Assembly (NCBI GenBank): GCA_025774545.1
Contig: JALGVU010000004.1
Span: forward strand, 2,130 to 66,129
DNA: 64,000 nt
Direction: 5' to 3'
Source of the DNA: a bacterium
GTDB lineage: Bacteria; Joyebacterota; Joyebacteria; Joyebacterales; Joyebacteraceae
Of the stretch, positions 16,985 to 64,000 are shown piece by piece. The position numbers and the translations under genes were made by a program. The notes under the pieces are model-generated. The model saw only the letters and a list, made by a program, of their open reading frames with translations. It searched no databases and was not told the DNA's origin. Position 1 is the stretch's first letter; the number at the start of each line of letters is the position of its first letter.

Positions 16985-17277
16985 CGCTCGAGCTCCCGCC
17001 TCAAGAGCTCCGCCCGCACCCGCTCGTTCCTTCTGCCGGTCCGGACGATGTTCCTCCTCACCCTGTTCAGACGGGTCGTGAGTCTCATCGCTTCAAAGAG
17101 GTCGTGCTCTTCGTCCGAAAGGAACTTGAGGTTGCCCCGGTGCCACCGGAGCCTCTCCTCGAGGGCCGCGCCGTACTCGTGCATGTAGACCAGGGTCGAC
17201 GCCGAGACCCGCGCCAGCCGCGCGTCCTCCTCGTCCAGTCTGACCTCGGCCTGGGGAGCCTCGAACACGATTCCCAA
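16981..17277 (-). CDS. small hypothetical protein (98 aa) between the C25 peptidase and the PorV-like gene
   Basis: ORF in operon context with 4-nt overlap to the downstream gene; no recognisable domain. Confidence 0.35.
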   Translation of the reverse strand: MGIVFEAPQAEVRLDEEDARLARVSASTLVYMHEYGAALEERLRWHRGNLKFLSDEEHDLFEAMRLTTRLNRVRRNIVRTGRRNERVRAELLRRELER

Positions 17278-23307: not shown

Positions 23308-23332
23308 TGTCTACACTCCGCTCTGGCTCCGG

Positions 23333-24538
23333 TCAGACAGCGTCCGTGAGCGCTTCGACGCCCGGGAGCGGCCTACCCTCGAGGAACATGAGGGACGCGC
23401 CGCCGCCGGTCGAGATGTGCGTCAGCCGGTCGGCGACTCCCGCCTTCGCGATCGCCGCCGCGGAATCCCCTCCCCCGATGATGCTCGTGGCACCCGCGTC
23501 CGTCGACTCGGCAACGGCCTCGGCGATCGCGTTCGTTCCCTCAGCGAAGGGCTCGATCTCGAAGACTCCGAGCGGCCCGTTCCACACGATCGTCTTGGCG
23601 TCACGGACGACGGCGGCGAACGCTTCGATGGTTCGGGGCCCGATGTCGACGCCCTTCCAGCCGGCCGGCACCCCGTCCTCGATCGACACGACCCTGGACG
23701 CGGCGCCCTCCTCGACGTCCTCCGCGGCAACGAGATCGACCGGGAGCGTGATCACCTTCCCCGCGTCGCGCGCCGCCTCGAGGATCGCGCGGGCCGTCTC
23801 GAGCCGGTCCTCCTCGAGGAGCGAGTCGCCCACGGCGAAGCCCTGGGCCTTCAGGAACGTGAAGGCCATGCCGCCGCCGACCAGGAACGTGTCGACCTTG
23901 GGCAAGAGATTCTCGATGACCCCAATCTTGTCTGACACCTTCGCGCCGCCCAGGATCGTGACGTAGGGCGGTTCCGGGGATTCCGTCGCCTGGGCAAGAT
24001 GGCGGAGCTCGTTCTCCATGAGGAAGCCCATCGCCCGTTCCTCGAAGTGGGCCGTCACACCGACGGTCGAGGCGTGTGCGCGATGCGCGGTGCCGAACGC
24101 GTCGTCGACGTAGACGTCGCCCATCCGGGCGAGCCGGAAGGCGAAGTCGGGCTCGTTCTTCGTCTCGCCGCGGTGGAACCTGAGGTTCTCGAGGAGCAGG
24201 ACGTCGCCGTTCCCCATCCGGGCCACCAGCCCCTCGGCCGTGTCGCCCACGCAGTCGGGGGCCATGGTCACGCCGAGTCCGAGGAGTTCGGCCAGGCGTG
24301 CCGCCACGGGCCGGAGCCTCATGGCGTCGACGAGCTCGCCCTTGGGCCTCCCGAGGTGCGACGCGAGGACCGCCTTGCCGCCCGCGTCCACGATGTGCCT
24401 CACGGTCGGGAGCGCGCTCCGGATCCTCGTGTCGTCCGTGATCTCTCCCCTGTCGTTCAGGGGGACGTTGAAGTCGACGCGGGTGAGCACGCGCCTGCCC
24501 TCAACGGCGAGGTCGTTCACGTGCAGCTTCTGCGTCAT
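23333..24538 (-). CDS. pgk: phosphoglycerate kinase
   Basis: Full-length PGK with conserved N-domain (RVDFNVP) and C-terminal GGGAS motif. Confidence 0.9.
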   Translation of the reverse strand: MTQKLHVNDLAVEGRRVLTRVDFNVPLNDRGEITDDTRIRSALPTVRHIVDAGGKAVLASHLGRPKGELVDAMRLRPVAARLAELLGLGVTMAPDCVGDTAEGLVARMGNGDVLLLENLRFHRGETKNEPDFAFRLARMGDVYVDDAFGTAHRAHASTVGVTAHFEERAMGFLMENELRHLAQATESPEPPYVTILGGAKVSDKIGVIENLLPKVDTFLVGGGMAFTFLKAQGFAVGDSLLEEDRLETARAILEAARDAGKVITLPVDLVAAEDVEEGAASRVVSIEDGVPAGWKGVDIGPRTIEAFAAVVRDAKTIVWNGPLGVFEIEPFAEGTNAIAEAVAESTDAGATSIIGGGDSAAAIAKAGVADRLTHISTGGGASLMFLEGRPLPGVEALTDAV

Positions 24539-24548
24539 ACGCCGTTCC

Positions 24549-25553
24549 TCACTTCCGGGCGACCAGCTTCATCATGTCGACCATGCGCGCGGCGTAGCCC
24601 GCCTCGTTGTCGTACCAGCCGAAGATCTTCACGAGGTCTCCGCCCTGGACCTTCGTCAGGAGGCTGTCGAAGATGCAGGAGTGCCGGTCGCCGATGATGT
24701 CGATTGAGACAATGGGTTCGTCGGTGAATCCGAGGTAGCCCTTGAGTGAACCCTCCTTCGACGCCTTCAGGAAGGCGGCGTTGATCTCCTCGGCGGTCGT
24801 CTTCTTCTCGAGCTGGACGGTGAAGTCGACGATCGAGCCGTCCGGCGTCGGGACGCGGATCGCCATCCCGTCGAGCTTGCCCTTGAGCTCAGGCATGACG
24901 ATGGTGATGGCCTTCGCGGCTCCCGTCGTCGTGGGGATCATCGAGACGGCGGCCGCGCGGGCCCGCCTCAGGTCCTTGTGGGGGAAGTCGAGGATCCTCT
25001 GGTCGCTCGTGTAGCCGTGGATCGTCGTCATGAGGCCCCGGACGATGCCAAAGTTGTCCAGAAGGACCTTGACCATCGGCGCCGCGCAGTTCGTCGTGCA
25101 CGAGGCCGTGGAGATGATGTCGTGCTTGTCCTGATCGTAGTCGCCGTCGTTGACGCCCATCACGATCGAGATGTCCGGCTCCTTCGCGGGCGCCGAGATC
25201 ATGACCTTCCCCGCGCCGGCGGTGAGGTGCTTCGAGGCCCCCGCGCGGTCCCTGAACTTGCCGGTCGACTCGATGACGACGTCGACACCGAGCTCCTTCC
25301 ACGGAAGGCCGGCGGGGTCCTTCTCGGAGTAGATCTTGAACCGGTCCCCGTTGACGACGATCTCGTCGCCCTCGACCGTGACGTCGCCGTCGAAGCGCCC
25401 GTGGACCGAGTCGTACTTGAACAGGTGCGCAAGCGTCGCCGCGTCCGTGAGATCGTTCACCGCGACGAGGTTGAAGTCGGGATTGTCCTTGGCGGTCCGG
25501 AGGACGAGCCTGCCGATGCGGCCGAATCCATTGATCGCGTAGTTGAGAGTCAA
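24549..25553 (-). CDS. gap: glyceraldehyde-3-phosphate dehydrogenase
   Basis: INGFGRIGR Rossmann motif and ASCTTNCAAP catalytic Cys motif. Confidence 0.9.
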   Translation of the reverse strand: MTLNYAINGFGRIGRLVLRTAKDNPDFNLVAVNDLTDAATLAHLFKYDSVHGRFDGDVTVEGDEIVVNGDRFKIYSEKDPAGLPWKELGVDVVIESTGKFRDRAGASKHLTAGAGKVMISAPAKEPDISIVMGVNDGDYDQDKHDIISTASCTTNCAAPMVKVLLDNFGIVRGLMTTIHGYTSDQRILDFPHKDLRRARAAAVSMIPTTTGAAKAITIVMPELKGKLDGMAIRVPTPDGSIVDFTVQLEKKTTAEEINAAFLKASKEGSLKGYLGFTDEPIVSIDIIGDRHSCIFDSLLTKVQGGDLVKIFGWYDNEAGYAARMVDMMKLVARK

Positions 25554-25563
25554 CGTGAACCTC

Positions 25564-26487
25564 CTAGATCTTCCCGGTCGACCCGAACAGCTCCATCTTC
25601 GATTTGACCACTTCCTTCATGCCTTCTCGCGCCGCGGCCAGGATCTTCCTTGGATCGAAAACCTCCGGCGTCTCCGCGAGAACCTGCCGGACGCGGGCGG
25701 TGAACGCAAGTCTGAGATCGGTGTCGATGTTGACCTTCGCGATGCCGTGCGCAACGGCCTCCCTGATGCTCTCGGGAGGCACGCCCCTGGCGCCTGGGAG
25801 CACCGCTCCGTAGCGCTGGGCCAGTCCGAGGACGTCGGGCGGCACGGCGGACGCCCCGTGCAGCACGAGAGGCACGGCGACGCGCTCGGCGATCTTCCTC
25901 AGTCTGTCGATCGCGAGCTTGGGCTCAGACTTGAACTTGTAGGCGCCGTGCGAGGTGCCGATGGCGACCGCGAGGGAGTCGCAGCCGGTTCGCTCCACGA
26001 ACTCGCGGGCCTCATCGGGGTCCGTGTAGGTGGCCTCAGACGCCGCGACCGCAATCTCGTCCTCGATGCCCATGAGCCTGCCGAGCTCCGCCTCGACCGA
26101 GACGCCGCGAGGCGCCGCCATCTCGACGACCTCCTTCGTGACACGCACGTTCTCCTCGAACGGCAGGTGAGATCCGTCGATCATGACGGAACTCCACCCG
26201 TGCTCGAGGCAGCTCCGGACCACGTCGAGATCGGTGCCGTGGTCGAGGTGGAGCGCGGCGGGCACGCCGGCGCGCTCCGCGAGATCCTCAACCATGAAGC
26301 GGATCTGCTCGTGGCCGGCGTAGGTGATCGCCGATTGCGACGTCGCCACCATCACGGGCGATCGCATCTCGGAGGCCGCCTCGAAGACGGCCTGCGTGAT
26401 CTCCAGGTTGCTCGTGTTGAACGCGCCCACGGCGTAGCCGTCGGCTCGGGCCGGCGCGAGGATGTCCTTGCCGGTGACGAGCGTCAC
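25564..26487 (-). CDS. fba: class II fructose-/tagatose-bisphosphate aldolase
   Basis: Class II FBA N-terminal GAFN motif, metal-binding His residues (LHLDHG), 307 aa. Confidence 0.8.
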   Translation of the reverse strand: MTLVTGKDILAPARADGYAVGAFNTSNLEITQAVFEAASEMRSPVMVATSQSAITYAGHEQIRFMVEDLAERAGVPAALHLDHGTDLDVVRSCLEHGWSSVMIDGSHLPFEENVRVTKEVVEMAAPRGVSVEAELGRLMGIEDEIAVAASEATYTDPDEAREFVERTGCDSLAVAIGTSHGAYKFKSEPKLAIDRLRKIAERVAVPLVLHGASAVPPDVLGLAQRYGAVLPGARGVPPESIREAVAHGIAKVNIDTDLRLAFTARVRQVLAETPEVFDPRKILAAAREGMKEVVKSKMELFGSTGKI

Positions 26488-26542
26488 GTCCTGTGTCCCC
26501 TCCGCGTTCGGGTTCCTGTGGTGATCCCGGTCGTTCGACGGC

Positions 26543-27592
26543 CTATCCGAAGAACGTCCGCGCGACCTCGTAGAGCTCCGAGTCGACCCGCTTGAGCGAT
26601 TCGGTCGCGTGCGACATCTCGATCGGGATGATCCTGTCGCCGGTGACGCTCGCCATCTTGCCGAAATCGCGTTCCTGGACGAGGTCGGCCGCCAGCACGC
26701 CGAAGCGAGTGCCGAGCACCCGATCGAAGGCCGTGGGCGTGCCGCCCCGCTGGATGTATCCGAGCACGCTCACGCGCGTCTCGTACCCGGTGTCGGCCTC
26801 GATGGCCCTCGCGAGCTCGTTTCCGATGCCGCCCAGCCTCACGTGACCGAACGCGTCGGTCCCGCCCTGCTTCACGACGAGCCCGTGGTTCTCGCCGTCC
26901 TCTCCCTTGACGGGGAACTCAGCGCCCTCGGCGACCACGACGATGCTGAAGTTCTTCCCGCGCCCGTGGCGCTTTCGGATGACGTCGCAGACCTCCTCGA
27001 GCGTGAACGGTATCTCGGGGATCAGGATCAGATCGGCGCCTCCGGCGATCCCCGCCTTGACGGCGATCCAGCCGGTGTGGCGTCCCATGACCTCGACCAC
27101 GACGACGCGGTTGTGCGATTCCGCGGTCGTGTGGAGGCGGTCGATGGCCTCGGTCGCGATGTGGACGGCAGTGTCGAAGCCGAACGTGAAGTCGGTGCCG
27201 CTGATGTCGTTGTCGATCGTCTTGGGCACTCCGACGATCGGCAGCCCTTCCTGGTAGAGCCGGTAGCCGACCCCGAGCGTGTCCTCACCGCCCACGGCGA
27301 TCAGCCCGGCGAGTTCGTCGCTCTCGAACTGCCGCTTGATCGCCTCCGGTCCGCCTTCGGTCTTGTACGGGTTCGTCCTCGACGTCCCCAGAATCGTGCC
27401 TCCGCGCGGGAGGATCCCGGACACCTCGTCCATTCCGAGCGGCAGCGTGTTCCCGTGCATCACACCCGCCCAGCCGTATCGGTACCCCAGGACCTGTCCC
27501 CCGTACTTGCCGATGGTGCGACGCACGATCGCGCGGATCACGGCGTTCAGTCCGGGGCAGTCGCCCCCACCGGTCAGAACTCCGACCTTCAT
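26543..27592 (-). CDS. pfkA: 6-phosphofructokinase (group III, actinobacterial-type; ATP- or PPi-dependent). The ORF extends to 27847 but the conserved start is MKVGVLTGGGDCPGLN
   Basis: GGDCPGLNAVIRA N-terminal motif, GGDGT-like and PFK core; ATG at 27592 chosen to match the conserved N-terminus. Confidence 0.8.
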   Translation of the reverse strand: MKVGVLTGGGDCPGLNAVIRAIVRRTIGKYGGQVLGYRYGWAGVMHGNTLPLGMDEVSGILPRGGTILGTSRTNPYKTEGGPEAIKRQFESDELAGLIAVGGEDTLGVGYRLYQEGLPIVGVPKTIDNDISGTDFTFGFDTAVHIATEAIDRLHTTAESHNRVVVVEVMGRHTGWIAVKAGIAGGADLILIPEIPFTLEEVCDVIRKRHGRGKNFSIVVVAEGAEFPVKGEDGENHGLVVKQGGTDAFGHVRLGGIGNELARAIEADTGYETRVSVLGYIQRGGTPTAFDRVLGTRFGVLAADLVQERDFGKMASVTGDRIIPIEMSHATESLKRVDSELYEVARTFFG

Positions 27593-27678
27593 GTCGTCCT
27601 CCGTGTTCGTGTCGCTGAGCGAGCGGGCTCGCGAGGCCTGCTCAGATCGAAGATGGTAGACTCGTCTCGCTCCGGATG

Positions 27679-28515
27679 TCAACCGCTTTTCCCCGAGCCC
27701 GTGTGCTCTTCGGGCACGCCGCGCCCCGCGGGCAGGCTCGGGCTCCGCGATCGTCTCCCGGCGCCCGAGCGGTGCGCTCCCTCCCCGCCGCTCGAACTCC
27801 CCGTCCGTTCCGGGACCCGGACTCGGCGGGCCGCGACGGCCAGGCACGCGACCGACGAGGCGTCGGCTTCGGCCAGCGCGTCCCGGGCGGCCCGCATCGT
27901 GGCGCCGGTCGTCACGACGTCGTCGAGGAGCAGAAGGCGCCGTCCCCGCGTGAGCGCGCGCACGCCCAGGAAGGCTCCCCGGACGTTGACCTCCCTCTCG
28001 CGCCGGCCGAGGCGAGCCTGACTCCTCGTCGATCGCGCGCGGACGAGAGCGCCCGGGATCACGGGAAGATCAAGGAGTCGCGCGAGGGATAGCGCGATGA
28101 GCTCGGCCTGGTTGAAGCCGCGCTCGCGCCGCCTCGTTCGGTGGAGCGGCACGGGCACGACGGCGTCGATCCCGGACGGGACGGCGACGCGCACGTGAGG
28201 AGCGACGAGGGCCGCGAGATCACCGGCGATCGAGGTGCGGCCGTCGTACTTGAGGGCGCGAATCAGCTCGCGGGCCGGCCCCTCGAAGTCCGCGACGTGC
28301 CACACGACGAGCGGCCCCGCTTCGACCTCGCAGAGCGCGGAGTCCGGGGCAACGAGGAAGGCTCGCGAGCGGGTCGCGATCGCCCGCAGGCAGAGGGCGC
28401 AGAGGTGCTTCTCCGGCGCGTCGAGTTGCCCGCCGCACGCGAGGCAGGAGTCCGGGAAGATGAACCCGAGAATCGCGGCGAGCGCGCGGGACGAGACTCG
28501 TTCGAACGTGGTCAC
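27679..28515 (-). CDS. comFC: ComF family phosphoribosyltransferase-domain protein (ComFC)
   Basis: N-terminal double Zn-ribbon (CLACG...CALC), C-terminal PRTase motif LLLLDDVVTTGATM. Confidence 0.7.
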   Translation of the reverse strand: MTTFERVSSRALAAILGFIFPDSCLACGGQLDAPEKHLCALCLRAIATRSRAFLVAPDSALCEVEAGPLVVWHVADFEGPARELIRALKYDGRTSIAGDLAALVAPHVRVAVPSGIDAVVPVPLHRTRRRERGFNQAELIALSLARLLDLPVIPGALVRARSTRSQARLGRREREVNVRGAFLGVRALTRGRRLLLLDDVVTTGATMRAARDALAEADASSVACLAVAARRVRVPERTGSSSGGEGAHRSGAGRRSRSPSLPAGRGVPEEHTGSGKSG

Positions 28516-50887: not shown

Positions 50888-51289
50888 CTACTCGACAGGA
50901 ACGTGCTGCTTGACGTAGTCCTCGAGGGTGGCGCGAGTGGCCGGGTCCATGCCCGTGAAGAAGCACGCGATCCGGTAGCCGCCCGACTCCCCGCCGGCCG
51001 GCTGGCACCTCACCACGACGCCGTGCGTCTTCACCACTTCGTTCTTGGTCTGCCCCCTGCGGTTTCTCACGGGGAGCACCATCGCTATCTGGAGCTTCGT
51101 GAGGGGCGCGATGAAGTGCACGACGTGGCAGTAGACGCCCTCCGCGCCGACGTTGATGCTCTCGGTCGTGATCGACTCGGCTGGGAACGTCTCGTCGGCG
51201 CTCGACAGCTGCAGGGCGATCTGCGCGTCGACACGATGCGACTTCCGGCGGTCGCTCCCGGACCAGTCTTCCCTCTTCTTGTCGCTCAT
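50888..51289 (-). CDS. PilZ-domain c-di-GMP binding protein (putative)
   Basis: RRKSHR (RxxxR) motif near the N-terminus followed ~25 residues later by a degenerate D/NxSxxG-like ESINVGAEG segment; 133 aa. Confidence 0.45.
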   Translation of the reverse strand: MSDKKREDWSGSDRRKSHRVDAQIALQLSSADETFPAESITTESINVGAEGVYCHVVHFIAPLTKLQIAMVLPVRNRRGQTKNEVVKTHGVVVRCQPAGGESGGYRIACFFTGMDPATRATLEDYVKQHVPVE

Positions 51290-52017: not shown

Positions 52018-52353
52018 TCAGGTTTGGCGCTCGGTGGTCTGCGGATCGACCGCGGTCTCTCGGCCTCCGCCATCGGACCAGTTGACGCGCTCCTTCAGAA
52101 ACTTGCTCGGCTTGAATACTGGGACCATCTTCTCAGGCACGACGACCTTCTGCGAACGGTCCCTCGGGTTGTACTTCATGCTGGCTTTGCGCCTCTTCAC
52201 CTTGAACGTCCCAAACTCCCGGATCTCGATGTGCTTGTGCCGCGCGAGCGAATCCTTGATCGCTTCGAGCAGGGCCTCGATCACCGCGGCGACGTCGCGC
52301 TTCGTCAACCCCGTCGTGGCGGCTACCCGGTCGACAAGATCGGCTTTCGTCAT
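52018..52353 (-). CDS. HU/IHF family DNA-binding protein (ORF extends to 52488)
   Basis: MTKADLVDRVAATTGLTKRDVAAVIEALLEAI ... FGTFKV ... NPRD arm motif; GGAGG RBS before ATG 52353. Confidence 0.8.
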   Translation of the reverse strand: MTKADLVDRVAATTGLTKRDVAAVIEALLEAIKDSLARHKHIEIREFGTFKVKRRKASMKYNPRDRSQKVVVPEKMVPVFKPSKFLKERVNWSDGGGRETAVDPQTTERQT

Positions 52354-52539
52354 GGCGCACAACCTCCGTGGTGGAGTCGACACCCGCCGTCGGGGTCGCC
52401 ACCTCCGCGCCGTCCCGCGGTCCATCCTGGTTCTGGTGCGGCGGGGTGGCGCAGGACAGGGGCACCTCGCCCATCCGGCGGCACACACAAATCACATCCT
52501 AGCAACCGGTCGGAGGTCTGTCAAATGCTTTCGTAGAGG

Positions 52540-53433
52540 TCACTTGCCGGGCCTGTAGAGGTACTGCGCCCCCAGGTTCGACGCAGGACGCTCGAGGGCT
52601 CGGCTCGCTGCGCCCGCCAGCATGTCCCAGAGCGTCAACTGCCTACGCCTGACCGGCTCCTGCACCCGGGGGGCTCCCTCGATCCCCCCCATTCTCCCCG
52701 CCACGGCGATCGCGTCCTCGAGCGTGCCGAGGCCGTCGACCAGCCCGGCCGCGAGCGCCTGGCGCCCCGACATGATGCGTCCGTCGGCGACGGCTCGGAC
52801 TTCGTCGATCGACATGTCGCGCTCGAGCGCGACCGTCTCGACGAACTGATCGTGGATGTCGTCGATCGTCGTCTGGAGGAGCTCACGCTCCTTCTCGGTG
52901 AGGGTCCTGCTCCAGGTCCCGGTGTCCTTGAACTCGCCGCTCTTGATCGTCTCGAAGCTCAGGCCGATCTTCTCGAAGAGCTCCTCCATGATCGTGAACG
53001 ACATGATCACACCGATGCTCCCGGTGAGCGTCCCCGGGTTTGCGAGCACGCTGTCTGCCGGGCAGGCCACGTAGTATGCTCCGGAAGCGGCCACGGATCC
53101 CATGGAGGCTACGACGGGCAGTCCCCCGTCCCGTATCTCGACGAGCTTCTCGTACATCTCCTGTGACGCGGCAACGCCTCCTCCCGGGCTGTCGAGCCGG
53201 AGCACGATCGCGCGGATTCCGGGATCGTCCGCCATGGTATCGAGATCGTCGACGACGACCCTGGCGTCAGCGATCAGCCCCTCGATCCTCACGAGCCCGA
53301 CCCGCGCCCCGTACGACGGCAACGAGATCCTCTGGCCGAGGAGCGATTCGATGGTGATGAGCGTGATGAGGAAGATGACGAGAATCGCGACGATCCCCGC
53401 AAGCCAGCCCCAGATGCATCCCTTCCGTGTCAT
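52540..53433 (-). CDS. sppA: signal peptide peptidase SppA (S49 family, 36K type)
   Basis: N-terminal TM, S49 catalytic Ser region (GSVAASGAYY) and Lys dyad context. Confidence 0.8.
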   Translation of the reverse strand: MTRKGCIWGWLAGIVAILVIFLITLITIESLLGQRISLPSYGARVGLVRIEGLIADARVVVDDLDTMADDPGIRAIVLRLDSPGGGVAASQEMYEKLVEIRDGGLPVVASMGSVAASGAYYVACPADSVLANPGTLTGSIGVIMSFTIMEELFEKIGLSFETIKSGEFKDTGTWSRTLTEKERELLQTTIDDIHDQFVETVALERDMSIDEVRAVADGRIMSGRQALAAGLVDGLGTLEDAIAVAGRMGGIEGAPRVQEPVRRRQLTLWDMLAGAASRALERPASNLGAQYLYRPGK

Positions 53434-54445: not shown

Positions 54446-54718
54446 CTACTCCTCGACGTCGATGCTGTCGATGACGCCGACGATGACGGTGCGAATGGGC
54501 GGGTTGTCGAGTCCGGTCACGAGGGCGGCCGAGCCTCCCTCGTCGACCACGAGCACGGTGTCTCCCCTTCCCGCCTGGACCGAGTCGACGGCGAGGATCG
54601 TCTCGTCGAGACTCGTGCCGTCGGGATCGAGCCTCTCGACGATGAGGAGTTTCCGGCCGTTCATCGCGTCGTGATGAACCGTCGAGACGACCTCGCCGAT
54701 GACCCGTCCGATGAACAC
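54446..54718 (-). CDS. BMC vertex protein, EutN/CcmL/PduN family (BMC-P #3), GTG start
   Basis: VFIGRVIGEVVSTVHHDAMNGRKLLIVERL matches Pfam03319 N-terminus; AAGGAG RBS; the ORF-track ORF 54446..55078 is over-extended. Confidence 0.8.
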   Translation of the reverse strand: MFIGRVIGEVVSTVHHDAMNGRKLLIVERLDPDGTSLDETILAVDSVQAGRGDTVLVVDEGGSAALVTGLDNPPIRTVIVGVIDSIDVEE

Positions 54719-54723
54719 GCCGC

Positions 54724-55014
54724 TCACTCCTTGGGGAAGATCGATTCGCCTCCGACGGTCACGTGATCGACGATGCCGACGATCGCCGCGTCCGCGGGAT
54801 TGAACGTGGGACTCAGGGCCTTCGCGGCCTCGCGCGACTTGACGAAGTAGACGAGCTGGCCGGGCGCGGCGCTCACGGTGTCGACCGCGACGAGAGGCGT
54901 CCCCCGCTCCTCGAGGAGGTGCGTGAGGGGCTGGACGACCAACATGCGTTTCCCCGTCAGCGAATCCACCTTCGCGGTCGCCCACACGGTTCCGATCACC
55001 CTCGCCAGGTGCAA
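54724..55014 (-). CDS. BMC vertex protein, EutN/CcmL/PduN family (BMC-P #2)
   Basis: MHLARVIGTVWATAKVDSLTGKRMLVVQPL N-terminus. Confidence 0.8.
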   Translation of the reverse strand: MHLARVIGTVWATAKVDSLTGKRMLVVQPLTHLLEERGTPLVAVDTVSAAPGQLVYFVKSREAAKALSPTFNPADAAIVGIVDHVTVGGESIFPKE

Positions 55015-55028
55015 GGCTGCCTCCGCGC

Positions 55029-55577
55029 CTAGAAGACCTTCGGCCCGAGATCCTCGTGCGGTCTCGGGATGACGACACTCCGGACGAGGTTGCCCCCGCG
55101 CTTCGCGACCGCGAGAGCGGCCTCGGTGGCCGCCTCGACGTCGTAGATCTCGCCGGTCATCGTGAAGAACGCCTTTCCCCCGAGTCCCTTCGCGAGGCGG
55201 ATCTCGATGAGCTTGACCGGCGCGGCCTTCGCGGCCGCGTCGGCCGCGAGGATGCTCGATGCCACCGTGAACGTCTCAACGACGCCGAGCGCGCCGAGGG
55301 CGGACACCTCCGTCGCGCCCAGGATCGCCGGGAAGACGTCAGGGTGGACGTGCGGGATGAAGAGGGTGTCGGCGACGACGTCGCCGCCGACGGCGGCGCC
55401 CCTCTCGAGCGACGCCTCGACCGACGACACGTCACCCGCGACGAGCACCATGAACTTGCCGGGGCAGATCGCGGTTGCCTCCAGGATCTCGACGTCGGCC
55501 GTCTTGGCCATCTCGTCGGTGACCGCGATCCCGATCGCGATGCTGATCGTCTCGACGAGTCCGATGGCTTCCTTCAC
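55029..55577 (-). CDS. tandem-domain BMC shell protein (BMC-T, PduT-like)
   Basis: Two PF00936-like domains (GLVET...VTDEMAKTADVEIL and GVVETFTVASSILAADAAAKAAPVKLIEI); 182 aa. Confidence 0.75.
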   Translation of the reverse strand: MKEAIGLVETISIAIGIAVTDEMAKTADVEILEATAICPGKFMVLVAGDVSSVEASLERGAAVGGDVVADTLFIPHVHPDVFPAILGATEVSALGALGVVETFTVASSILAADAAAKAAPVKLIEIRLAKGLGGKAFFTMTGEIYDVEAATEAALAVAKRGGNLVRSVVIPRPHEDLGPKVF

Positions 55578-55646: not shown

Positions 55647-56975
55647 TCACGCGGCGATGACGATCTCCTCCGCGGTGATCGATTCGATCGTACCCGCGAT
55701 GCTCGCGTGCACGCGGGCGCCGAGCTTGCCATCGGGGATCTCGCCAACGACGTCCCCTTCGAGCACGCGGTCTCCCTCGGCGACCACCGGCCGCGCGGCG
55801 GCGCCGATGTGCTGGGTCGTTCTGAGGAAGACGCGCGCGGGCTCGAGCCGGCGTTCGTCGAGAGGAGCCGGCCCATCGTACTCCGAGAGCCCCAGTCGCT
55901 GCACGAGCCTCGCTGACGGTATCTGCCGGTACTCGCGCACGTCGTCGGGCTTGAGGTCGGCCCGGCGGTGCGGATTCACCACGCCTCGGCGCGTGAGTTC
56001 GGCCTTGAGGTCCGCGAGGATCCGCCGCGGGCGAATCCCGAGGGGGCACGCGAAGAGCTCGCACATGCCGCACTCGCAGCAGAGGAACGCCGACGTGACG
56101 TGCTCGTGATCCTCGGGCAACGTGTCGTACTGCACGGCCCGCACCGTGCGGTGCGGCTTCAGGTCGTGTCCCAGGAGCGCGCGCGGACAGAGCTCCGTGC
56201 AGGCGAGGCACTGACAGCAGGCCGCCCGCGCGATCCGGAGCATCTGCGCCCGCGACTCGGTCCGCGCGGTCACCATGGTGTGATCCGGCGGAAGCACGAT
56301 GAGCCCGCCGACCGTCTTCGTCAGCGGCACCGCGTGGCTCGACGCGATCGTCCCCATCATCGGACCGCCGACGATCACGGCCGCGTCGTCGACCGTCACG
56401 CCGCCCGCGCGGTCGATGATCTCGCCGATCGGCGTTCCGATCGGCACGGTCAGGGTCGCCGCGGCTGCGACCTCTCCCTGGACGGTCACCATCCTCGAGG
56501 TCACGGGCCGTCCCTCGACCGCGTCTGCGATCTGCGCGAGGGTCGTGACGTTGTTCACGACCACGCCCACGTCGAGCGGGATCCCGCCCTCGGGGACGAC
56601 GCGCCCCGTGACGTCGAAGACCAGCAGGAACTCATCGCCCGCGGGATAGACGTTCTCGAGGAGCTTGAGCTCGATCGCGGAATCGGCCGGCAGAACGCGC
56701 TCGATCGCCTCGCCCGCCCGCCTGTTCTTCCTCTTGACGGCGAGGACCACACGGCTCGCTCCGACCGATTCGGCGAGAAGCTCGAGACCGCGTACGACCC
56801 GATCGGGCCGCGAGACGAGAAGCTCGGTGTCCGACCGGATCAGCGGCTCGCACTCGGCGCCGTTCGCGAGGAGCACGTCCACGTCGGCCCTCGCCTTGAC
56901 GTGCGTCGGGAACCCGCCCCCGCCCGCACCGACGACGCCCGCCTTCTCGATCGCTGTGGCCACCTGATTGTCCAC
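55647..56975 (-). CDS. PduS/RnfC-like NADH-binding flavoprotein with two [4Fe-4S] ferredoxin motifs
   Basis: N-terminal GVVGAGGGGFPTHVKA (RnfC/PduS nucleotide-binding), CCQCLACTELCP and CCECGMCELFACP cluster motifs; C-terminal barrel-like GDRVLEGDVVGEIPDGKLGARVHASIAGTIESI segment. Confidence 0.7.
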   Translation of the reverse strand: MDNQVATAIEKAGVVGAGGGGFPTHVKARADVDVLLANGAECEPLIRSDTELLVSRPDRVVRGLELLAESVGASRVVLAVKRKNRRAGEAIERVLPADSAIELKLLENVYPAGDEFLLVFDVTGRVVPEGGIPLDVGVVVNNVTTLAQIADAVEGRPVTSRMVTVQGEVAAAATLTVPIGTPIGEIIDRAGGVTVDDAAVIVGGPMMGTIASSHAVPLTKTVGGLIVLPPDHTMVTARTESRAQMLRIARAACCQCLACTELCPRALLGHDLKPHRTVRAVQYDTLPEDHEHVTSAFLCCECGMCELFACPLGIRPRRILADLKAELTRRGVVNPHRRADLKPDDVREYRQIPSARLVQRLGLSEYDGPAPLDERRLEPARVFLRTTQHIGAAARPVVAEGDRVLEGDVVGEIPDGKLGARVHASIAGTIESITAEEIVIAA

Positions 56976-57050: not shown

Positions 57051-58484
57051 CTACACGATGCGGAAGTGGTCGACGAGCGTACACCGCCGCTCGCGCGTGA
57101 AGGTGCGCGCGGACGTGAGTCCCTCGCCGGTCGGGCTCGCGATGGTGAACGACGTGAAGCCCTCGCCGCCAAAGCTGAGCCCGGCGAACGACGGCCCGTT
57201 CTTCACGAAGATCGAGACGTCCATGACGCGGGCCATCCGAGAGAGAACATCGATGTTCTTGGAATGGGCCACCGCAGTATGTCCGTAGCCCCGCTCCACC
57301 TCGCGCGCGAAGTCGATCGCCTCGGCGGCCGTCTCGACGGTCACGAGGGGGATGATCGGCATCATCTGCTCCGTCCACACGAGCGGATGGGAGCGATCGG
57401 CGTCGAAGAACGCGATCCTCGCGTCGGAGCGGCACGGGAGGCCCGCCGCATCGAGGATGACGGACACGTTCTTCCCGACGAAGTCCCGCGCGACGGGCGA
57501 GCTCCTCCCCGGTCCCAGGTTCTCCGTCAGGACGAGATCGGTGACACGGTCGACCACGGGCCCCCTGAGCTCGACCGCCCCGGCCTGTCTGAGGGCGTCC
57601 TTCAGGGCGTCCGCGATGGCGCGAACCGCGACGATCTCCTTCTCCGCGATGCACACGATGTTGTTGTCGAGGCTCGCGCCGGCGATGATGTCGCGGGCGG
57701 CCTTCGGCAGATCGGCCGTCTCGTCGACCACGACGGGGGGGTTCCCGGGACCCGCGGCGATCACCTTCTTGCCCGACTGCATGGCGGCCTTGACGACGCC
57801 GGGGCCGCCGGTCACCACGAGAAGCCGGATTCCGGGATGGGACATGACGGCCTGCGCGGTCTCGATCGAGGGCTCGTTCACGGTGTGGAGAAGCGCCCTC
57901 GGTCCCCCGGCCTCCGAGATGGCGCGGTTCAGAATGTCGATCGTCGTCAGAGAGACGACGCGAGCCGACGGATGGGGATTGAAGACGACGGCGTTGCCGC
58001 CGGCGACCATCCCGATGGCGTTGCAGATGATCGTCTCGGACGGGTTCGTCGAGGGGGTGACGGAGCCGATCACGCCGTAGGGCGCATGTTCGACGAGGGT
58101 CAGGCCGTGGTCGCCCGAGTAGGCCGTGGGCGCGAGGTCCTCGAGGCCGGGCGTCTTCGTGATCGCGAGGGTGTTCTTGCGGATCTTGTCCTCGTAGCGC
58201 CCGAGTCCGGTCTCGTCGACGGCGAGCCTCGACAGCCGCTCGACGTTCTCGAGGGCGGCCCGGCGCATCGCATCGATCATGGCGCGGCGTCGCTCGAGCG
58301 GGACGTCGCGGTATTCGAGGAAGCTCGTGCGGGCGGCGGCCGCGGCCGCGTCGACGCTCCCGAGGATACCGCGTCCGTCGAACGGAGGCGGCGCCTGCGG
58401 CGTCTCGAGCGCCTGTCCGCGCGCCGTCAGCTCGTCGAGCACCTTGCCGACGATCGTCTCGATTGAGGGGGCGTCTCTCTCCAC
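57051..58484 (-). CDS. CoA-acylating aldehyde dehydrogenase (EutE/PduP family) with N-terminal amphipathic helix (putative encapsulation peptide)
   Basis: ALDH fold with catalytic Cys (NNIVCIAEKE) and EutE/PduP-like spacing; N-terminal SIETIVGKVLDELTARG helix + Pro-rich linker. Confidence 0.85.
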   Translation of the reverse strand: MERDAPSIETIVGKVLDELTARGQALETPQAPPPFDGRGILGSVDAAAAAARTSFLEYRDVPLERRRAMIDAMRRAALENVERLSRLAVDETGLGRYEDKIRKNTLAITKTPGLEDLAPTAYSGDHGLTLVEHAPYGVIGSVTPSTNPSETIICNAIGMVAGGNAVVFNPHPSARVVSLTTIDILNRAISEAGGPRALLHTVNEPSIETAQAVMSHPGIRLLVVTGGPGVVKAAMQSGKKVIAAGPGNPPVVVDETADLPKAARDIIAGASLDNNIVCIAEKEIVAVRAIADALKDALRQAGAVELRGPVVDRVTDLVLTENLGPGRSSPVARDFVGKNVSVILDAAGLPCRSDARIAFFDADRSHPLVWTEQMMPIIPLVTVETAAEAIDFAREVERGYGHTAVAHSKNIDVLSRMARVMDVSIFVKNGPSFAGLSFGGEGFTSFTIASPTGEGLTSARTFTRERRCTLVDHFRIV

Positions 58485-58587: not shown

Positions 58588-58878
58588 CTAGGACTTGTTA
58601 TAGACGATGCTCCCGTCGACCTCGACCGAGTCGACGATGGCCATGATCACGGCATCGGCGGGGCGGTCCTGCGTGATCTCCGTCTGACGAGCCGAGCTGC
58701 CGCTGGCGTAGAGCACGACCTCCCCGGGACCCGCCCCGACGGCGTCGATCGCGACGACGAACGCGCCGGTCTCGCCGCCCTCCAGATCGATCTGCTTGAC
58801 GATCTGGAGCTTCGTCCCGACCAGCTTCTCGTTCTTGACGGTCGAGACGACCGTCCCCACGACCTTCCCGAGATTCAT
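58588..58878 (-). CDS. BMC vertex protein, EutN/CcmL/PduN family (BMC-P #1)
   Basis: [31 protein letters not shown]-terminus. Confidence 0.8.
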
Positions 58879-58972: not shown

Positions 58973-59269
58973 CTACTTCGATCTGACGTTCGCGGTCTTC
59001 CCTATCGGCAGCACGTCCTCGAGGCTCGCGTGCGGCTTCGGGATCACGTGCGTCGTGAGAAGCTCGCCGACCTTGCTGGCCGCCGCCATGCCCGCGTCGA
59101 CCGCGGCGCGCACTGCCGCCACGTCCCCACGGACGACGGCCGTGACGTATCCCCCGCCGACCTTCTCGTACCCCACCAACGTCACCTTCGCCGCCTTGAC
59201 CATGGCGTCGGACGCCTCCACCATGCCGATGAAACCTCTCGTCTCGATCATGCCGAGGGCCTCGCCCAT
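58973..59269 (-). CDS. BMC hexamer shell protein (BMC-H, PF00936); ORF extends to 59323
   Basis: [57 protein letters not shown] canonical BMC-H. Confidence 0.85.
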
Positions 59270-59344: not shown

Positions 59345-59617
59345 TCAGGTGAGCAGAATGTCCTCGAGCATCTCATGCGGCGCGGGGATCACGTGGTACG
59401 AGACGAGCTCGCCGACCTTCGACGCGGCCTCGGCGCCGGCCGCCACCGCCGCCTTCACCGCCCCCACGTCTCCCCGAACCAGCGACGTGACGTATCCCCC
59501 GCCGATCTTCTCGTACTTCGTCAGGGTGACGTTCGCCGTCTTGACCATCGCGTCGGTCGCCTCGATGAGGCCGATGACGCCCTTGGTCTCTACCATTCCT
59601 AGAGCAAGACCGGGCAA
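59345..59617 (-). CDS. BMC hexamer shell protein (BMC-H, PF00936)
   Basis: [58 protein letters not shown]. Confidence 0.85.
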
Positions 59618-59657: not shown

Positions 59658-60305
59658 CTACCGGAGTATCTCGATCGTCATCGGCGACCGAACGTCGGCC
59701 GCGTTGCCGTCGTCCGTGTCGACGTGAAGCTCGAGGGCCGCCGTCTTCCCAACTCGGATGAGCACGCTCTCGAGGACGAGCGCCCTCACGCCCGCGAACC
59801 GCACCCGGACCAGATCGCCGTCCTTCACACGGCGGATCGTCGCGTCGCGCTCGGTCATGTGGATGTGACGCGTGGCCCGTATGGCCCCTTCCCTGAGCGC
59901 CACGGTTCCGGCCGGGCCGACGAGCGTGAGAGGCTCGCTGCCCGCGAGGTCGCCGGAGCGCCGAACGGGCGGGTCGATCCCCAGCCGGATTGCGTCGGTC
60001 CTCGAAAGCTCCACCTGGGTGTAGTTCCTCGTCGGTCCGAGGATCCTCACCCCCTCGATCGCGCGCATGGAGCGCCCGACGATCGTCACCCTCTGCTCCG
60101 AGGCAAACTCACCAGGCTGGCCGAGGTCCCGGAGCTTCGTGAGGGCGAACCCGTCGCCGTAGAGCGCGTCGAGGCCGCCCCGGGAGATGTGCGCGTGCCG
60201 GGCAGACACGTTGACCGGAATCCCGGTGGCGTCGGATCGGCGTGCCGGCTCGTCTCCCTGGAGCCTCCGGAGGACCTCCGATGCTATCCTCTCGACGTCC
60301 TCCAT
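59658..60305 (-). CDS. pduL: phosphate acyltransferase PduL (PTAC) with N-terminal amphipathic helix. ORF extends to 60527; ATG at 60305 with GGAGGG RBS
   Basis: Duplicated PduL motifs with catalytic His (VSARHAHIS ... ATRHIHMT); N-terminal [14 protein letters not shown] helix. Confidence 0.8.
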
Positions 60306-60910: not shown

Positions 60911-61867
60911 TCAGCGTGCCCTGCGCTCAAGCGCCGCCGCGAGTCCGCGGCGGTACGCCCCCGCGATGAGACAGAGAACCGCGGGACGCGAGAGCGGCCC
61001 CAAGTGAACGCTACGCGCCACGGCTCTCACGAGCGCGCTCACGGGGCGGTTCGTGACGAAGCGGAGCACGAGCTTCCTCGCGGCAAGGGGGAACGGGTCG
61101 CCGGGCGCGGGAGGAAGGAGCCCGGCGACCGAGAGCTCGCCCGCGCGGCCGGGATGCCGCTCGAGAAGTGCTAAGAGAGGCTCGGCCGTCTCGAAGCGCT
61201 TGTCGAGGACTTGGTCGAGGGTCTGCCGGTGGACGTGGTGCGAGATTGCCTCGGCACAGTACCAGAACTTGAGGCCGGCGTCGTTCTCGAGGCGGAAGGC
61301 GATCTCGGTGTCCTCGAAGCCGTAGTTCTTGAAGCTCTCGTCGAAGAGCCCGACCGCGAGGAGATCGGCGCGGGCGACCGAGGAGTTGTTGGTGACGAAA
61401 TAGCGCGCCGGGGAACGCCCGCCCGGCGCGAGCTTGCGGACCCCCGTGCCGTCCAGATACGTGTAGATCGTGGACCGCCCCAGTTCGGGAGCCTGGGTCG
61501 CGTCTCCGATCGCGACGGCCCGGTCGTGGGTCTCGTGAAACGCCACGTGCGCCTCGATGAGTCCCTCGTCGCAGCGCATGTCGTCGTCGACGAAGACGAC
61601 GAGGTCGTTTCCGGCGGCCCGGATGGCCGTGTTCCGGGCGGCGGCCCTCCCCCGGTTCTCCTCGTGTCTCACCGCGACGAGCTTGAAGGGCGGCTCGAGC
61701 GCCTCGAGGAACGCGGGGGTGTCGTCGGCGGAGCAATCATCGACGACGACGACCTCGATGAGGTCCATCGGATACGTCTGCCGGGAGAGCGACGCGAGCG
61801 TCTCGGCGAGGTTCTCCAGCTTTCCGTACGTCGGCATGACGACGCTCACGGTGCTACGGGGCGGCAT
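60911..61867 (-). CDS. family 2 glycosyltransferase
   Basis: VVMPTYGKLENLAETLASLSRQTYP ... VVDDCSADDT (GT-A DxD region). Confidence 0.75.
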   Translation of the reverse strand: MPPRSTVSVVMPTYGKLENLAETLASLSRQTYPMDLIEVVVVDDCSADDTPAFLEALEPPFKLVAVRHEENRGRAAARNTAIRAAGNDLVVFVDDDMRCDEGLIEAHVAFHETHDRAVAIGDATQAPELGRSTIYTYLDGTGVRKLAPGGRSPARYFVTNNSSVARADLLAVGLFDESFKNYGFEDTEIAFRLENDAGLKFWYCAEAISHHVHRQTLDQVLDKRFETAEPLLALLERHPGRAGELSVAGLLPPAPGDPFPLAARKLVLRFVTNRPVSALVRAVARSVHLGPLSRPAVLCLIAGAYRRGLAAALERRAR

Positions 61868-61870
61868 CCC

Positions 61871-62965
61871 TCAACGCCTCCAGTTCCGGACGAGCTCCTC
61901 GCAGAGCTCCTCCATCCTCGCCATGTGCGCGCCGTGGTCGGCGTCGGTCTGGACCTTCGCGGCGGCCGCCGCGGCGATCGACTCGCGCAGCTCCCCCGAA
62001 TCGATCAGACGCAGGATCGCGTTCTCGAGCGCCTCCTGGTCGCGCGGGGCGACGACGAGACCCGTCGTCCCGTCCTCCACCCACTCGAGCGCGGACGCGA
62101 GGCTCGACACCACGGGTGGCGACCCGCAGGCCATGGCCTCGAGGAGCGAGACCGGCGTGGCGTCGACCGACGGCACCGTCAGGAAGGCGTCCGAGATCAC
62201 GAGGTAGGCCGGGAGCTCCCCGTGTGGGATCCTCCCCACGAAGTGCGCGCGCTCGTCGATCCCGAGGCCGCAGGCTAACGCCCGGAGCTCGCTGTCGTCC
62301 CCCTCGTTGCCCGCGATGATGAAGTGCGTCGTCGGGCGCGCCTCGAGGACCCGCGGGATCGCGCGAACGATCACGTCGATGTTGTAGTAGGCCTGCGTGA
62401 AGCTCCTGATGCTGATCACGACCGGGGCGTCTGAGGGAATGCCGAGACGCTCGCGGACGTCGGACGGGGCGTCGGGTCTGAAGTTCGCGAGATCGACGCC
62501 CCACTGGACGACGCGACAGGCGTCCCTGCTCGCGCCCATCCGGACGGCGTGCTCGAGGATGTCCTCGGAGTCTCCGGTCACGAGGTCGGCACTCCGGAGG
62601 ACGTGGCGGGCGAGCCGCCCCTTCATGAACGACGTGTGGGGTGTGAGATAGACGTCGTCGCCCCAGACGGTCATGATGAACGGATGGAAACCCGAGAAGG
62701 CGCCCCAGTAGCCGTAACCCGTCAGGAAGTGCGTGTGCAGAAGATCGGGCTCGATCGCGGCGAGGATCCTCCGCACCTTGCGGAGAGCGACCGCGTAGTG
62801 GAGCGGCTTCCAGGGAATGCCGGTTCGGATGTCGTAGACCTTGACGCCAGCGATCGGCGAGGGCTGGACCGTCATGAGGTGGACGTCGTGGCCGCGCTCG
62901 ACGAAGTGCGAGAGCCACCGCTCGGTGTGGATGTGTCCGCCGATTGACAGGTACGCGATCCTCAT
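61871..62965 (-). CDS. family 4 (GT-B) glycosyltransferase, 364 aa; the ORF-track ORF 61871..63976 is over-extended
   Basis: MRIAYLSIGGHIHTERW N-terminus and C-terminal EAMACGSPPVVS...DGTTGLVV GT4 motif; stop overlaps the GT2 start region. Confidence 0.75.
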   Translation of the reverse strand: MRIAYLSIGGHIHTERWLSHFVERGHDVHLMTVQPSPIAGVKVYDIRTGIPWKPLHYAVALRKVRRILAAIEPDLLHTHFLTGYGYWGAFSGFHPFIMTVWGDDVYLTPHTSFMKGRLARHVLRSADLVTGDSEDILEHAVRMGASRDACRVVQWGVDLANFRPDAPSDVRERLGIPSDAPVVISIRSFTQAYYNIDVIVRAIPRVLEARPTTHFIIAGNEGDDSELRALACGLGIDERAHFVGRIPHGELPAYLVISDAFLTVPSVDATPVSLLEAMACGSPPVVSSLASALEWVEDGTTGLVVAPRDQEALENAILRLIDSGELRESIAAAAAAKVQTDADHGAHMARMEELCEELVRNWRR

Positions 62966-63003
62966 GCTGCCCCGATCGTGAGAGGTCGGTCCCAGGCGTA
63001 CGG

Positions 63004-64000
63004 TCAGAGCGTGACCGAGAGCCCGGTCCGGGGGACTCCCTCCATCCTCCTGGCGTGGTTCCTGAGGTACCCCGCGGCGACCCACACGAAGAGCCACACG
63101 AGCGGCACGACCTTGAAGGAGTGGTTCAGAACGTGCTGGAACGCGGTCCACCGCGCCTCGGGGTTGTCTCCGGGCACGTCGTAGAGGATGAAGAGCGTGG
63201 GCGCGGCCGCGAGGGCGTAGATCACCCAGAGCACGCGCGCCCGCGTCTTCGCGTAGTAGAGGACGAACAGCGGAAGCAGGAGCACGTAGTGGTACTCCCA
63301 CACCTCCCTGAACACGAAGAAGTAGACCATCGTCCAGAGGCCGAGCGACTCGAGGAAGTCGAACGGCTTCTTTCTGAAGGTGACCCAGAGGCTCGTGACG
63401 ACCGGCGCGAGCATCGTGAGGAAGACGAGCCCGCGGGTGACCGAGAGCTTGAGCGGCCCGATGTAGGCGGCGATCTCGGACGCCTGCGGGAAGAACCTCA
63501 TCTTGAGGGTCATGAGAAGCGCCAGGACCCCCAAGTTGCCGGAGTACGGGTAGAGCGTGAGCGAGAAGTTGTCGTGCGCGAAGCTCCCCACGCCCGTTTG
63601 ACGGAAGGCGAGATACGGGATCGTCGTGACGATCAGGAGCGCGGCCGCGATCGCGATCGTCCGGTAGCGGCGGAGCTTGAAGAGGATCGGGACGTAGAGG
63701 ATCGTGAGGTGCTTGATGAGCACGCTCGCGATCCAGTTCCACTCGAACGCGCGCATCCTCCCCCGCGAGTACCCGAGCGCCGTGAAGAAGACGAGGACGG
63801 CCATCGGGAAGGTCAGCTGTCCCATGTACTGCTCGATGTAGAAGGGCGTGTACATGAGCCACATCGAGGCGAGGTAAGCGAAGAGCGAACGGTCTATCAC
63901 CATCCGCCAGGTCCCCCAGAGCGCGGCCAGGAGCACGAGCTCGATCAGGACCACCCAGAGCCAGTAGGCGGCCCACGGCCCGAGCGCGTTCAGCGGCACG
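63004..64000 (-). CDS. polytopic membrane protein, probable GT-C-type glycosyltransferase (DUF2029-like); N-terminus beyond window edge
   Basis: ≥8 hydrophobic helices, Tyr/Trp-rich loops; location in a glycosyltransferase cluster. Confidence 0.45.
   Translation of the reverse strand, partial: VPLNALGPWAAYWLWVVLIELVLLAALWGTWRMVIDRSLFAYLASMWLMYTPFYIEQYMGQLTFPMAVLVFFTALGYSRGRMRAFEWNWIASVLIKHLTILYVPILFKLRRYRTIAIAAALLIVTTIPYLAFRQTGVGSFAHDNFSLTLYPYSGNLGVLALLMTLKMRFFPQASEIAAYIGPLKLSVTRGLVFLTMLAPVVTSLWVTFRKKPFDFLESLGLWTMVYFFVFREVWEYHYVLLLPLFVLYYAKTRARVLWVIYALAAAPTLFILYDVPGDNPEARWTAFQHVLNHSFKVVPLVWLFVWVAAGYLRNHARRMEGVPRTGLSVTL

Follow-up and report, generated by a model that had tools for sequence, protein, structure and literature searches.

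In a 64,000-nucleotide stretch of contig JALGVU010000004.1 (GenBank assembly GCA_025774545.1; the whole 64-kb stretch is referred to below as the window), the gene at 55647-56975 on the minus strand lies in a ten-gene bacterial microcompartment (BMC) operon and very likely encodes an ordinary member of the PduS family, which Sutter et al. 2024 (PNAS 121:e2414220121, PMC11626177; bioRxiv PMC11275729) renamed MNdh. We propose that this MNdh and the iron–sulfur (Fe–S) shell protein encoded beside it probably recycle NAD+ inside the microcompartment by exporting electrons. The C-terminal barrel of the protein is the equivalent of the RnfC_N domain and is circularly permuted relative to RnfC. This MNdh is a new and uncharacterized member of a family whose domain order and role in NAD+ recycling were already published in 2024.

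Domain architecture and cofactor motifs

The list of open reading frames (ORFs) of the window contains a 442-residue ORF with a GTG start at exactly 55647-56975. Because its GC content at third codon positions (GC3) is 0.89 in a window of 68% GC, we take it to be the coding frame. The JGI call of the same gene (P0001) has 438 residues, four fewer, and is 100% identical. Four Pfam domains, all matching above their gathering scores, account for most of the protein:

55647-56975, minus strand: MNdh (PduS-type metabolosome NADH dehydrogenase), 442 residues; Pfam architecture, Salmonella PduS alignment and AlphaFold2 model
56526-56951, minus strand: Complex1_51K domain (NuoF-type, binding flavin mononucleotide (FMN) and NADH), residues 9-150; Pfam E = 4e-41
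56352-56492, minus strand: SLBB beta-grasp domain, residues 162-208; Pfam E = 4.5e-9, 36.4 bits against a cutoff of 27
56034-56222, minus strand: two-[4Fe-4S] ferredoxin-like domain, residues 252-314; Pfam Fer4_17, E = 1.7e-12
55665-55844, minus strand: C-terminal RnfC_N barrel-sandwich hybrid domain, residues 378-437; Pfam E = 1.1e-13, 51.5 bits against a gathering cutoff of 25.6

The glycine-rich FMN/NADH loop, GAGGGGFPTHVK, occupies residues 16-27 (nucleotides 56895-56930) inside Complex1_51K, and its residues G16, A17, G18, G19, F22, P23 and K27 are invariant among 36 homologues. The same is true of all eight cluster cysteines, which are arranged in a CxxCxxCxxxCP motif (C253, C256, C259 and C263) followed by a CxxCxxCxxxxCP motif (C299, C302, C305 and C310; residues 299-311, nucleotides 56043-56081, minus strand). 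A four-residue spacer before the last cysteine of the second motif is also found by regular-expression matching in Salmonella PduS and in 53 of 84 relatives, whereas the RnfC spacer has three residues and the alignment shows a gap at this point. This longer spacer may mark the family, at a site close to the cluster directed toward the shell protein.

A circularly permuted RnfC_N barrel

When MNdh is compared with the sequences in the PDB by phmmer, it aligns to Clostridium tetanomorphum RnfC (7zc6_C) as two pieces whose order is swapped: MNdh residues 371-434 correspond to RnfC residues 23-84, and MNdh residues 4-313 correspond to RnfC residues 122-417. An AlphaFold2 model of the full protein, built on 36 homologues, has a mean predicted local distance difference test score (pLDDT) of 93 and a predicted template-modelling score of 0.91, with pLDDT values of 94-98 over the last 65 residues. 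The best solved structures for this model are five RnfC entries, with template-modelling (TM) scores of ~0.65 over ~335 columns; such partial coverage is what a sequential aligner would be expected to give for a permuted protein. Modelled alone, residues 366-442 (77 residues, including the segment GDRVLEGDVVGEIPDGKLGARVHASIAGTIESI at residues 401-433 within the barrel) reach a pLDDT of 95, and the top five PDB matches of this isolated barrel are RnfC subunits (TM 0.75-0.78, 32-34% identity), with NqrA next in rank and biotinyl/lipoyl domains after it.

The same four domains and the circular permutation of pfam13375 are stated explicitly by Sutter et al. 2024 (PMC11626177; PMC11275729), whose separate superpositions on RnfC gave 0.9 Å for the barrel and 1.2 Å for the remainder. 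The preprint (PMC11275729) swaps the termini, placing pfam13375 at the C terminus in RnfC and at the N terminus in MNdh. The PNAS version (PMC11626177) agrees with the present data in placing this domain at the C terminus of MNdh and at the N terminus of RnfC.

Relatives and conserved gene neighborhood

The Salmonella gene annotated 'pduS: cobalamin reductase PduS' is collinear with MNdh residues 22-440 in one piece (45.6% identity, E = 3e-103; tblastn, plasmid records), and it sits in a canonical pdu operon with pduT next to it. Pfam assigns to Salmonella PduS the domains Complex1_51K (residues 21-160), SLBB (175-219), Fer4_17 (264-324) and RnfC_N (381-447, E = 1.6e-13), and it recovers the same order in homologues named Anaerolineae and Candidatus Hodarchaeota. 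Among the 120 matches listed in a large protein database, which are ~440 residues long, all carry PF01512, PF10531 or PF13534, and nearly all also carry PF13375.

To place the gene in context, we compared 82 related loci fetched from named genomes of many phyla, 46 of them with full 10-kb flanks. In all 82, the match extends to query residue 430 at least, that is, through the C-terminal domain. A tandem-domain BMC-T shell protein gene starts no more than 400 nucleotides downstream of the MNdh gene in 70 of the 82 relatives, and its pore cysteine is kept in 70 of 70; in the BMC-T of nine relatives this cysteine sits in ICSGK, VCSGK or ACPGH. An aldehyde dehydrogenase (AldDH) is present in the flanks of 60 relatives, and a PduQ-like iron-dependent alcohol dehydrogenase (Fe-ADH) is present in 12 of the 82 fetched flanks (8 of the 46 with full 10-kb flanks). 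The closest named relatives are Candidatus Eisenbacteria metagenome-assembled genomes (MAGs), with synteny across the flanks, and the GC-rich source lineage is probably Candidatus Eisenbacteria as well. The gene order BMC-H, BMC-P, AldDH, MNdh, BMC-T, BMC-P, BMC-P, aldolase is found again in a MAG from Planctomycetota (L035), and the partial order MNdh, BMC-T, BMC-P, BMC-P, aldolase recurs in Anaerolineae.

Modules of MNdh and BMC-T also occur in MAGs labelled as archaea, namely one named Candidatus Hodarchaeota archaeon (P0088, 49% identity) and a Thermoplasmatota MAG with the order AldDH-MNdh-BMC-T (L062). The latter could be a case of horizontal gene transfer or a binning artefact. A 2025 preprint on the microcompartments of archaea, which applies the MNdh model, already treats the Hodarchaeales case.

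These comparisons bear on what the initial annotation had read from the sequence, namely a PduS-like protein with two CxxCxxCxxxCP clusters and a C-terminal RnfC_N-like barrel that would represent a domain rearrangement, to be checked by domain annotation and structure prediction. The four-domain architecture and the full-length collinear alignment to Salmonella PduS (45.6% identity) support the family assignment. Domain annotation found RnfC_N, SLBB, Fer4_17 and Complex1_51K, and structure prediction with comparison to RnfC relates the C-terminal segment to RnfC_N, in line with the Pfam match (E = 1.1e-13), the swapped alignment and the isolated-domain model. Two details need amending. The first cluster motif is exactly as described, but the second contains one extra residue; and although the domain order is swapped relative to RnfC, this is no event in this protein but the standard PduS/MNdh architecture, present in 82 of 82 relatives and in Salmonella PduS.

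The microcompartment operon

The operon lies on the minus strand, with intergenic gaps of 2-103 nucleotides, and has the gene order PduL, BMC-H, BMC-H, BMC-P, AldDH, MNdh, BMC-T, BMC-P, BMC-P, class II aldolase. In addition to MNdh, it comprises the following genes, three of whose products carry a helix resembling an encapsulation peptide (EP):

59658-60305, minus strand: PduL phosphotransacylase, 215 residues from the ATG at 60305, with an N-terminal EP-like helix; PTAC E = 6.6e-66, NF011652 229.8 bits against a cutoff of 209
59345-59617, minus strand: BMC-H shell protein 1; Pfam BMC E = 8e-29
58973-59269, minus strand: BMC-H shell protein 2, 98 residues from the ATG at 59269 and also 98 residues in relatives; Pfam BMC E = 1e-29
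58588-58878, minus strand: BMC-P pentamer protein 1; EutN_CcmL E = 6e-29
57051-58484, minus strand: CoA-acylating AldDH (PduP/EutE type), with the N-terminal EP-like helix IETIVGKVLDEL followed by a Pro-rich linker; Pfam Aldedh, NF011927 644 bits against a cutoff of 403
55029-55577, minus strand: BMC-T(SE), a PduT-type tandem-BMC shell protein of 182 residues; two BMC domains, 40% identity to Salmonella PduT
54724-55014, minus strand: BMC-P pentamer protein 2; EutN_CcmL E = 1.9e-26
54446-54718, minus strand: BMC-P pentamer protein 3, 90 residues with a GTG start; CcmL/EutN matches and 90-residue orthologues in the syntenic relatives L001 and L003
53473-54348, minus strand: class II aldolase (pfam00596), with the C-terminal EP-like helix AIVQAVIREVQKAL after a Pro/Ser/Thr-rich linker; Aldolase_II E = 1.8e-47

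The MNdh gene is flanked directly upstream by that of AldDH, across a 75-nucleotide gap, and downstream, after 69 nucleotides, by that of BMC-T. The best NCBIfam model for this BMC-T is eut_PduT, at 112.6 bits and thus under its cutoff of 250.3. The pore residue Cys38 (nucleotides 55464-55466) lies in an invariant ICPGK motif and aligns with the cysteine of Salmonella PduT. By sequence inspection, MNdh is without an EP-like helix, unlike AldDH, PduL and the aldolase of the same operon, which would fit docking through BMC-T.

The class II aldolase is probably the signature enzyme of the operon. It has an extension of ~85 residues that ends in the EP-like helix, and it falls under every NCBIfam equivalog cutoff; its best models are 3-oxo-tetronate 4-phosphate decarboxylase (132 bits, cutoff 250), ribulose-1-phosphate aldolase (118 bits, cutoff 300) and fuculose-phosphate aldolases (~108-114 bits, cutoffs 250-308). 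The third BMC-P gene, which brings the BMC-P proteins up to the triplet usual in this metabolosome group, is absent from a plain ORF list because it is nested in a longer, spurious ORF of 210 residues (54446-55078).

Search for an alcohol dehydrogenase

We scanned 50 GC3-supported ORFs across the window with Pfam. None of them matches the families of Fe-ADH, zinc-dependent alcohol dehydrogenase (Zn-ADH), short-chain dehydrogenase/reductase (SDR) or lactate/malate dehydrogenase, and none matches Rnf membrane subunits, B12-dependent enzymes or adenosyltransferases. Upstream of PduL the window continues for ~3.5 kb, and two syntenic relatives extend past the point equivalent to its edge: a 478-kb metagenome contig (L001) and a Candidatus Eisenbacteria MAG (L003), with MNdh identities of 72% and 67%, respectively. 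Beyond the edge, neither contains an alcohol dehydrogenase detectable with an Fe-ADH probe, which a Zn-ADH or SDR would escape. The genes found there are polysaccharide-biosynthesis genes, encoding glycosyltransferases, an acetyltransferase, a DegT aminotransferase and an epimerase. The flanks of both relatives are also free of rnfA/B/D/E/G families.

Proposed recycling of NAD+ by electron export

In the published model, MNdh and a PduT-type BMC-T(SE) regenerate NAD+ for AldDH by electron export, notably in loci without an alcohol dehydrogenase; among 2172 loci with the MNdh/BMC-T(SE) pair, 361 lack one, and the MNdh family nearly always co-occurs with AldDH (Sutter et al. 2024). The evidence comprises an NADH oxidation kcat of ~20 per second, electron paramagnetic resonance, voltammetry and X-ray footprinting, and MNdh biochemistry has been published solely for the Clostridium botulinum homologue (Sutter et al. 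2024). Electron shuttling between PduS and PduT was already discussed by Axen et al. 2014, who also reported that a locus from Latescibacteria contains AldDH, PduL and PduS together with a class II aldolase and lacks an alcohol dehydrogenase.

The present locus fits this model because AldDH is present, a cysteine-bearing BMC-T is adjacent and no alcohol dehydrogenase was found. Applied here, the model predicts that the class II aldolase releases an aldehyde, which the encapsulated CoA-acylating AldDH would oxidize with conversion of NAD+ to NADH. MNdh, docked on the lumenal face of BMC-T(SE), would re-oxidize the NADH at its NuoF-type FMN site, and the C-terminal RnfC_N barrel is predicted to pack beside the FMN/NAD pocket. 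Electrons would pass through the two [4Fe-4S] clusters of MNdh to a [4Fe-4S] cluster bound by Cys38 in the pore of BMC-T and from there to an acceptor outside the shell. NAD+ would thus be regenerated without an alcohol dehydrogenase, and all of the aldehyde could proceed to acyl-CoA and, by way of PduL, to acyl-phosphate. For the NADH oxidase activity, the MNdh–BMC-T complex, the direction of flow and encapsulation, this scheme draws on the literature or on inference; the domain architecture, ligand motifs, permutation, adjacency of the cysteine-bearing BMC-T, operon content and the window's lack of any alcohol dehydrogenase are features of the DNA analysed here.

The initial annotation had anticipated much of this scheme. 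It had proposed that the locus has no alcohol dehydrogenase, and none appeared among the 50 window ORFs or, within the reach of the probe, past the edge in the two syntenic relatives. Its neighbor with a potential Fe–S ligand is indeed a PduT-type BMC-T, 69 nucleotides downstream, with Cys38 kept. Its suggestion that reducing equivalents move across the shell corresponds to the function best supported by the literature model and the content of the locus, electron export.

Several points weigh against this interpretation. Salmonella PduS was first characterized as a cobalamin reductase (references cited in Axen 2014). The acceptor in the published in vitro MNdh assay was O2, and half of the published AlphaFold complex solutions put MNdh on the outer face of BMC-T (Sutter et al. 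2024). Finally, an EP-bearing alcohol dehydrogenase could be encoded elsewhere in the genome, beyond the window and the ~10-kb flanks of the relatives.

A flavin reductase gene (PF01613, 51347-51898, minus strand) lies three genes downstream of the operon and is kept in both syntenic relatives; beside it are genes for an S49 peptidase (52540-53433), HU (52018-52488) and a PilZ protein (50888-51289). We considered its product as the external acceptor and rejected it, as the gene is conserved only within the Eisenbacteria clade, in which the whole neighborhood is syntenic, and is unlinked to MNdh in other phyla.

Alternative functions

The annotation of the Salmonella homologue raises the alternative that the protein is a cobalamin (corrin) reductase that regenerates adenosylcobalamin for a B12-dependent lumenal enzyme, a role given in the older literature cited in Axen 2014 and suggested by the 45.6% identity and shared architecture. 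We consider this very unlikely at the present locus, where none of the 50 window ORFs encodes a diol dehydratase, ethanolamine ammonia-lyase, adenosyltransferase (PduO, EutT or CobA type) or reactivase and where the signature enzyme is instead a metal-dependent class II aldolase; moreover, the fold leaves scant space for a corrin, and MNdh occurs frequently in B12-independent BMC types (Sutter et al. 2024). Database names point elsewhere, to the RnfC subunit of a membrane Rnf (ferredoxin:NAD+ oxidoreductase) complex. MNdh scores 260.2 bits in two stretches against NCBIfam TIGR01945 (cutoff 245.95), RnfC entries match it best among solved structures, and many homologues (P0003, P0007, P0008 and others) carry the name 'RnfC subunit' at JGI. 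These names arise because MNdh exceeds the TIGR01945 cutoff, but the model is blind to domain order, and the order in MNdh is permuted relative to every solved RnfC. Because the protein is collinear with Salmonella PduS, its gene lies inside a BMC operon upstream of a PduT-type shell protein, an arrangement seen in 70 of 82 relatives, and rnfA, B, D, E and G families are missing from the 50 window ORFs, a role as RnfC has a negligible probability. The PduS/MNdh family is systematically mis-annotated as Rnf in databases, and this locus, whose MNdh lies above the rnfC cutoff and whose homologues are widely labelled 'RnfC', illustrates the error.

A closer competitor to electron export, although still an improbable one, is that electrons flow in reverse, into the lumen, for example for cofactor reduction or enzyme repair, or that MNdh acts on the cytosolic face of the shell. 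The direction of flow cannot be read off the sequence, the outer-face docking solutions mentioned above would suit such a role, and Axen 2014 considered that PduS might accept electrons from PduT for catalysis. However, the operon encodes no lumenal consumer of electrons, neither a glycyl-radical activase nor a B12 enzyme, and it does encode a producer of NADH, AldDH, with no other recycler of NAD+. The near-constant co-occurrence with AldDH reported by Sutter et al. 2024, and seen here in 60 of 82 flanks, likewise favors oxidation of NADH in the lumen and export of its electrons.

Other genes in the window

A contiguous glycolytic cluster (22546-28069, minus strand) lies ~25 kb from the BMC operon and encodes triosephosphate isomerase, phosphoglycerate kinase, glyceraldehyde-3-phosphate dehydrogenase, class II fructose-bisphosphate aldolase and phosphofructokinase. 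Four ORFs of 331-461 residues have no Pfam match (14453-15838, 15890-17092, 61854-62918 and 63004-63999, all on the minus strand). At the positions of the last two (61854-63999), relatives have a GT87-like gene, or a gene of unknown function, and an acetyltransferase gene, belonging to a polysaccharide-biosynthesis cluster.

Comparison with known systems

MNdh and RnfC (7zc6_C, 9eri_C and 8ahx_C) share homologous FMN/NADH, SLBB, two-[4Fe-4S] and barrel-sandwich hybrid domains, at ~31-34% identity; the core gives TM scores of ~0.65 and the barrel 0.75-0.78. RnfC carries the barrel at its N terminus and MNdh at its C terminus (residues 378-437 of 442), and RnfC has Rnf membrane partners, whereas MNdh has none and is partnered with a shell protein. 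The likeness to Salmonella PduS is closer: both proteins have the four domains in the same order, the glycine-rich loop and cysteine motifs with three- and four-residue spacing, and both genes lie directly upstream of a PduT-type BMC-T with Cys38 in an operon with a CoA-acylating AldDH. MNdh is 12 residues shorter at the N terminus, and the Salmonella pdu operon includes a B12-dependent enzyme and the alcohol dehydrogenase PduQ, neither of which is present in this operon.

Among catalogued microcompartments, the experimentally characterized PVM type, which acts on fucose and rhamnose by way of lactaldehyde, is matched in its aldolase, AldDH, PduL, three BMC-P and two BMC-H. The ancillary genes of that type, encoding a DeoR regulator, acetate kinase and a lactate/malate-dehydrogenase-like protein, have no counterpart among the window ORFs, and MNdh/BMC-T is mostly found in satellite loci in PVM (18 of 20; Sutter et al. 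2024), whereas here the pair belongs to the main locus. PduL offers a further clue, as position 77 is Tyr or Phe in most PVM enzymes (lactyl-CoA) and Gln or Glu in the acetyl- and propionyl-CoA types (Erbilgin et al. 2016, PMC4784909). Anchoring on the RHxH zinc ligands, we infer that position 77 (rPduL numbering) is the Glu that follows a conserved QPG (QPGEFAS) here and in the PduL of both syntenic relatives (L001:6713-7360 and L003:6615-7352); Salmonella PduL has QPG-Q. As judged from the sequences, Glu77 and the lack of DeoR and acetate kinase argue against a strict PVM assignment, and the acyl-CoA may be other than lactyl-CoA despite the class II aldolase. The SPU type was rejected, as the window contains neither DERA (pfam01791) nor RpiB (pfam02502).

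The enzyme content resembles that of MIC4 (Sutter et al. 2021, Supplementary Data 2), a type defined by an N-terminal EP on its AldDh, a PTAC, a pfam00596 aldolase, a pfam00871 acetate kinase in the main locus, three BMC-P and a cysteine-bearing PduT-type BMC-T beside PduS, as well as by an AldDh that clusters with those of MUF2 and MUF3 and by shell-protein colour clades. The present locus shares the AldDH with its N-terminal EP-like helix, the PTAC, the pfam00596 aldolase, the BMC-P triplet and the pairing of PduS with a cysteine-bearing BMC-T; acetate kinase, present in MIC4 and MUF3, has no counterpart among the 50 window ORFs. MUF2 and MUF3 have the MIC4 enzymes with EP placements as in this locus (Sutter et al. 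2021), and counterparts of the present enzyme set are thus on record under MIC4, MUF2, MUF3 and MIC7. The shell set and, through the syntenic Candidatus Eisenbacteria relatives, the taxon are those of MIC7, which is found in Candidatus Latescibacteria/Eisenbacteria and has two BMC-H (one standard, one specialized), a BMC-P triplet and, at two of its loci, PduS with a cysteine-bearing BMC-T beside it (Sutter et al. 2021). The locus departs from MIC7 in that PduL and the class II aldolase belong to the same tightly spaced operon.

By the catalogue descriptions, as distinct from the catalogue's hidden Markov models and trees, the locus thus combines the taxon and shell set of MIC7 with MIC4-like enzymes minus acetate kinase. 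We entertain, as a doubtful possibility, that the Eisenbacteria-type operon is an undescribed BMC subtype in which MNdh and BMC-T(SE), fixed in the main locus, are the sole recycler of NAD+; on this reading, PduL Glu77 and the aldolase scores under the equivalog cutoffs would indicate that the aldehyde is not lactaldehyde and that the substrate is new to metabolosomes. The mechanism, the permutation and electrochemical recycling without an alcohol dehydrogenase were all set out in PNAS in 2024 and reused in the 2025 archaeal preprint, so the discovery value is low, and modest novelty could remain only in the formal BMC type. Set beside those systems, the locus would provide a clean natural example of alcohol-dehydrogenase-free NAD+ recycling, encoded in a compact ten-gene operon of an uncultivated lineage.

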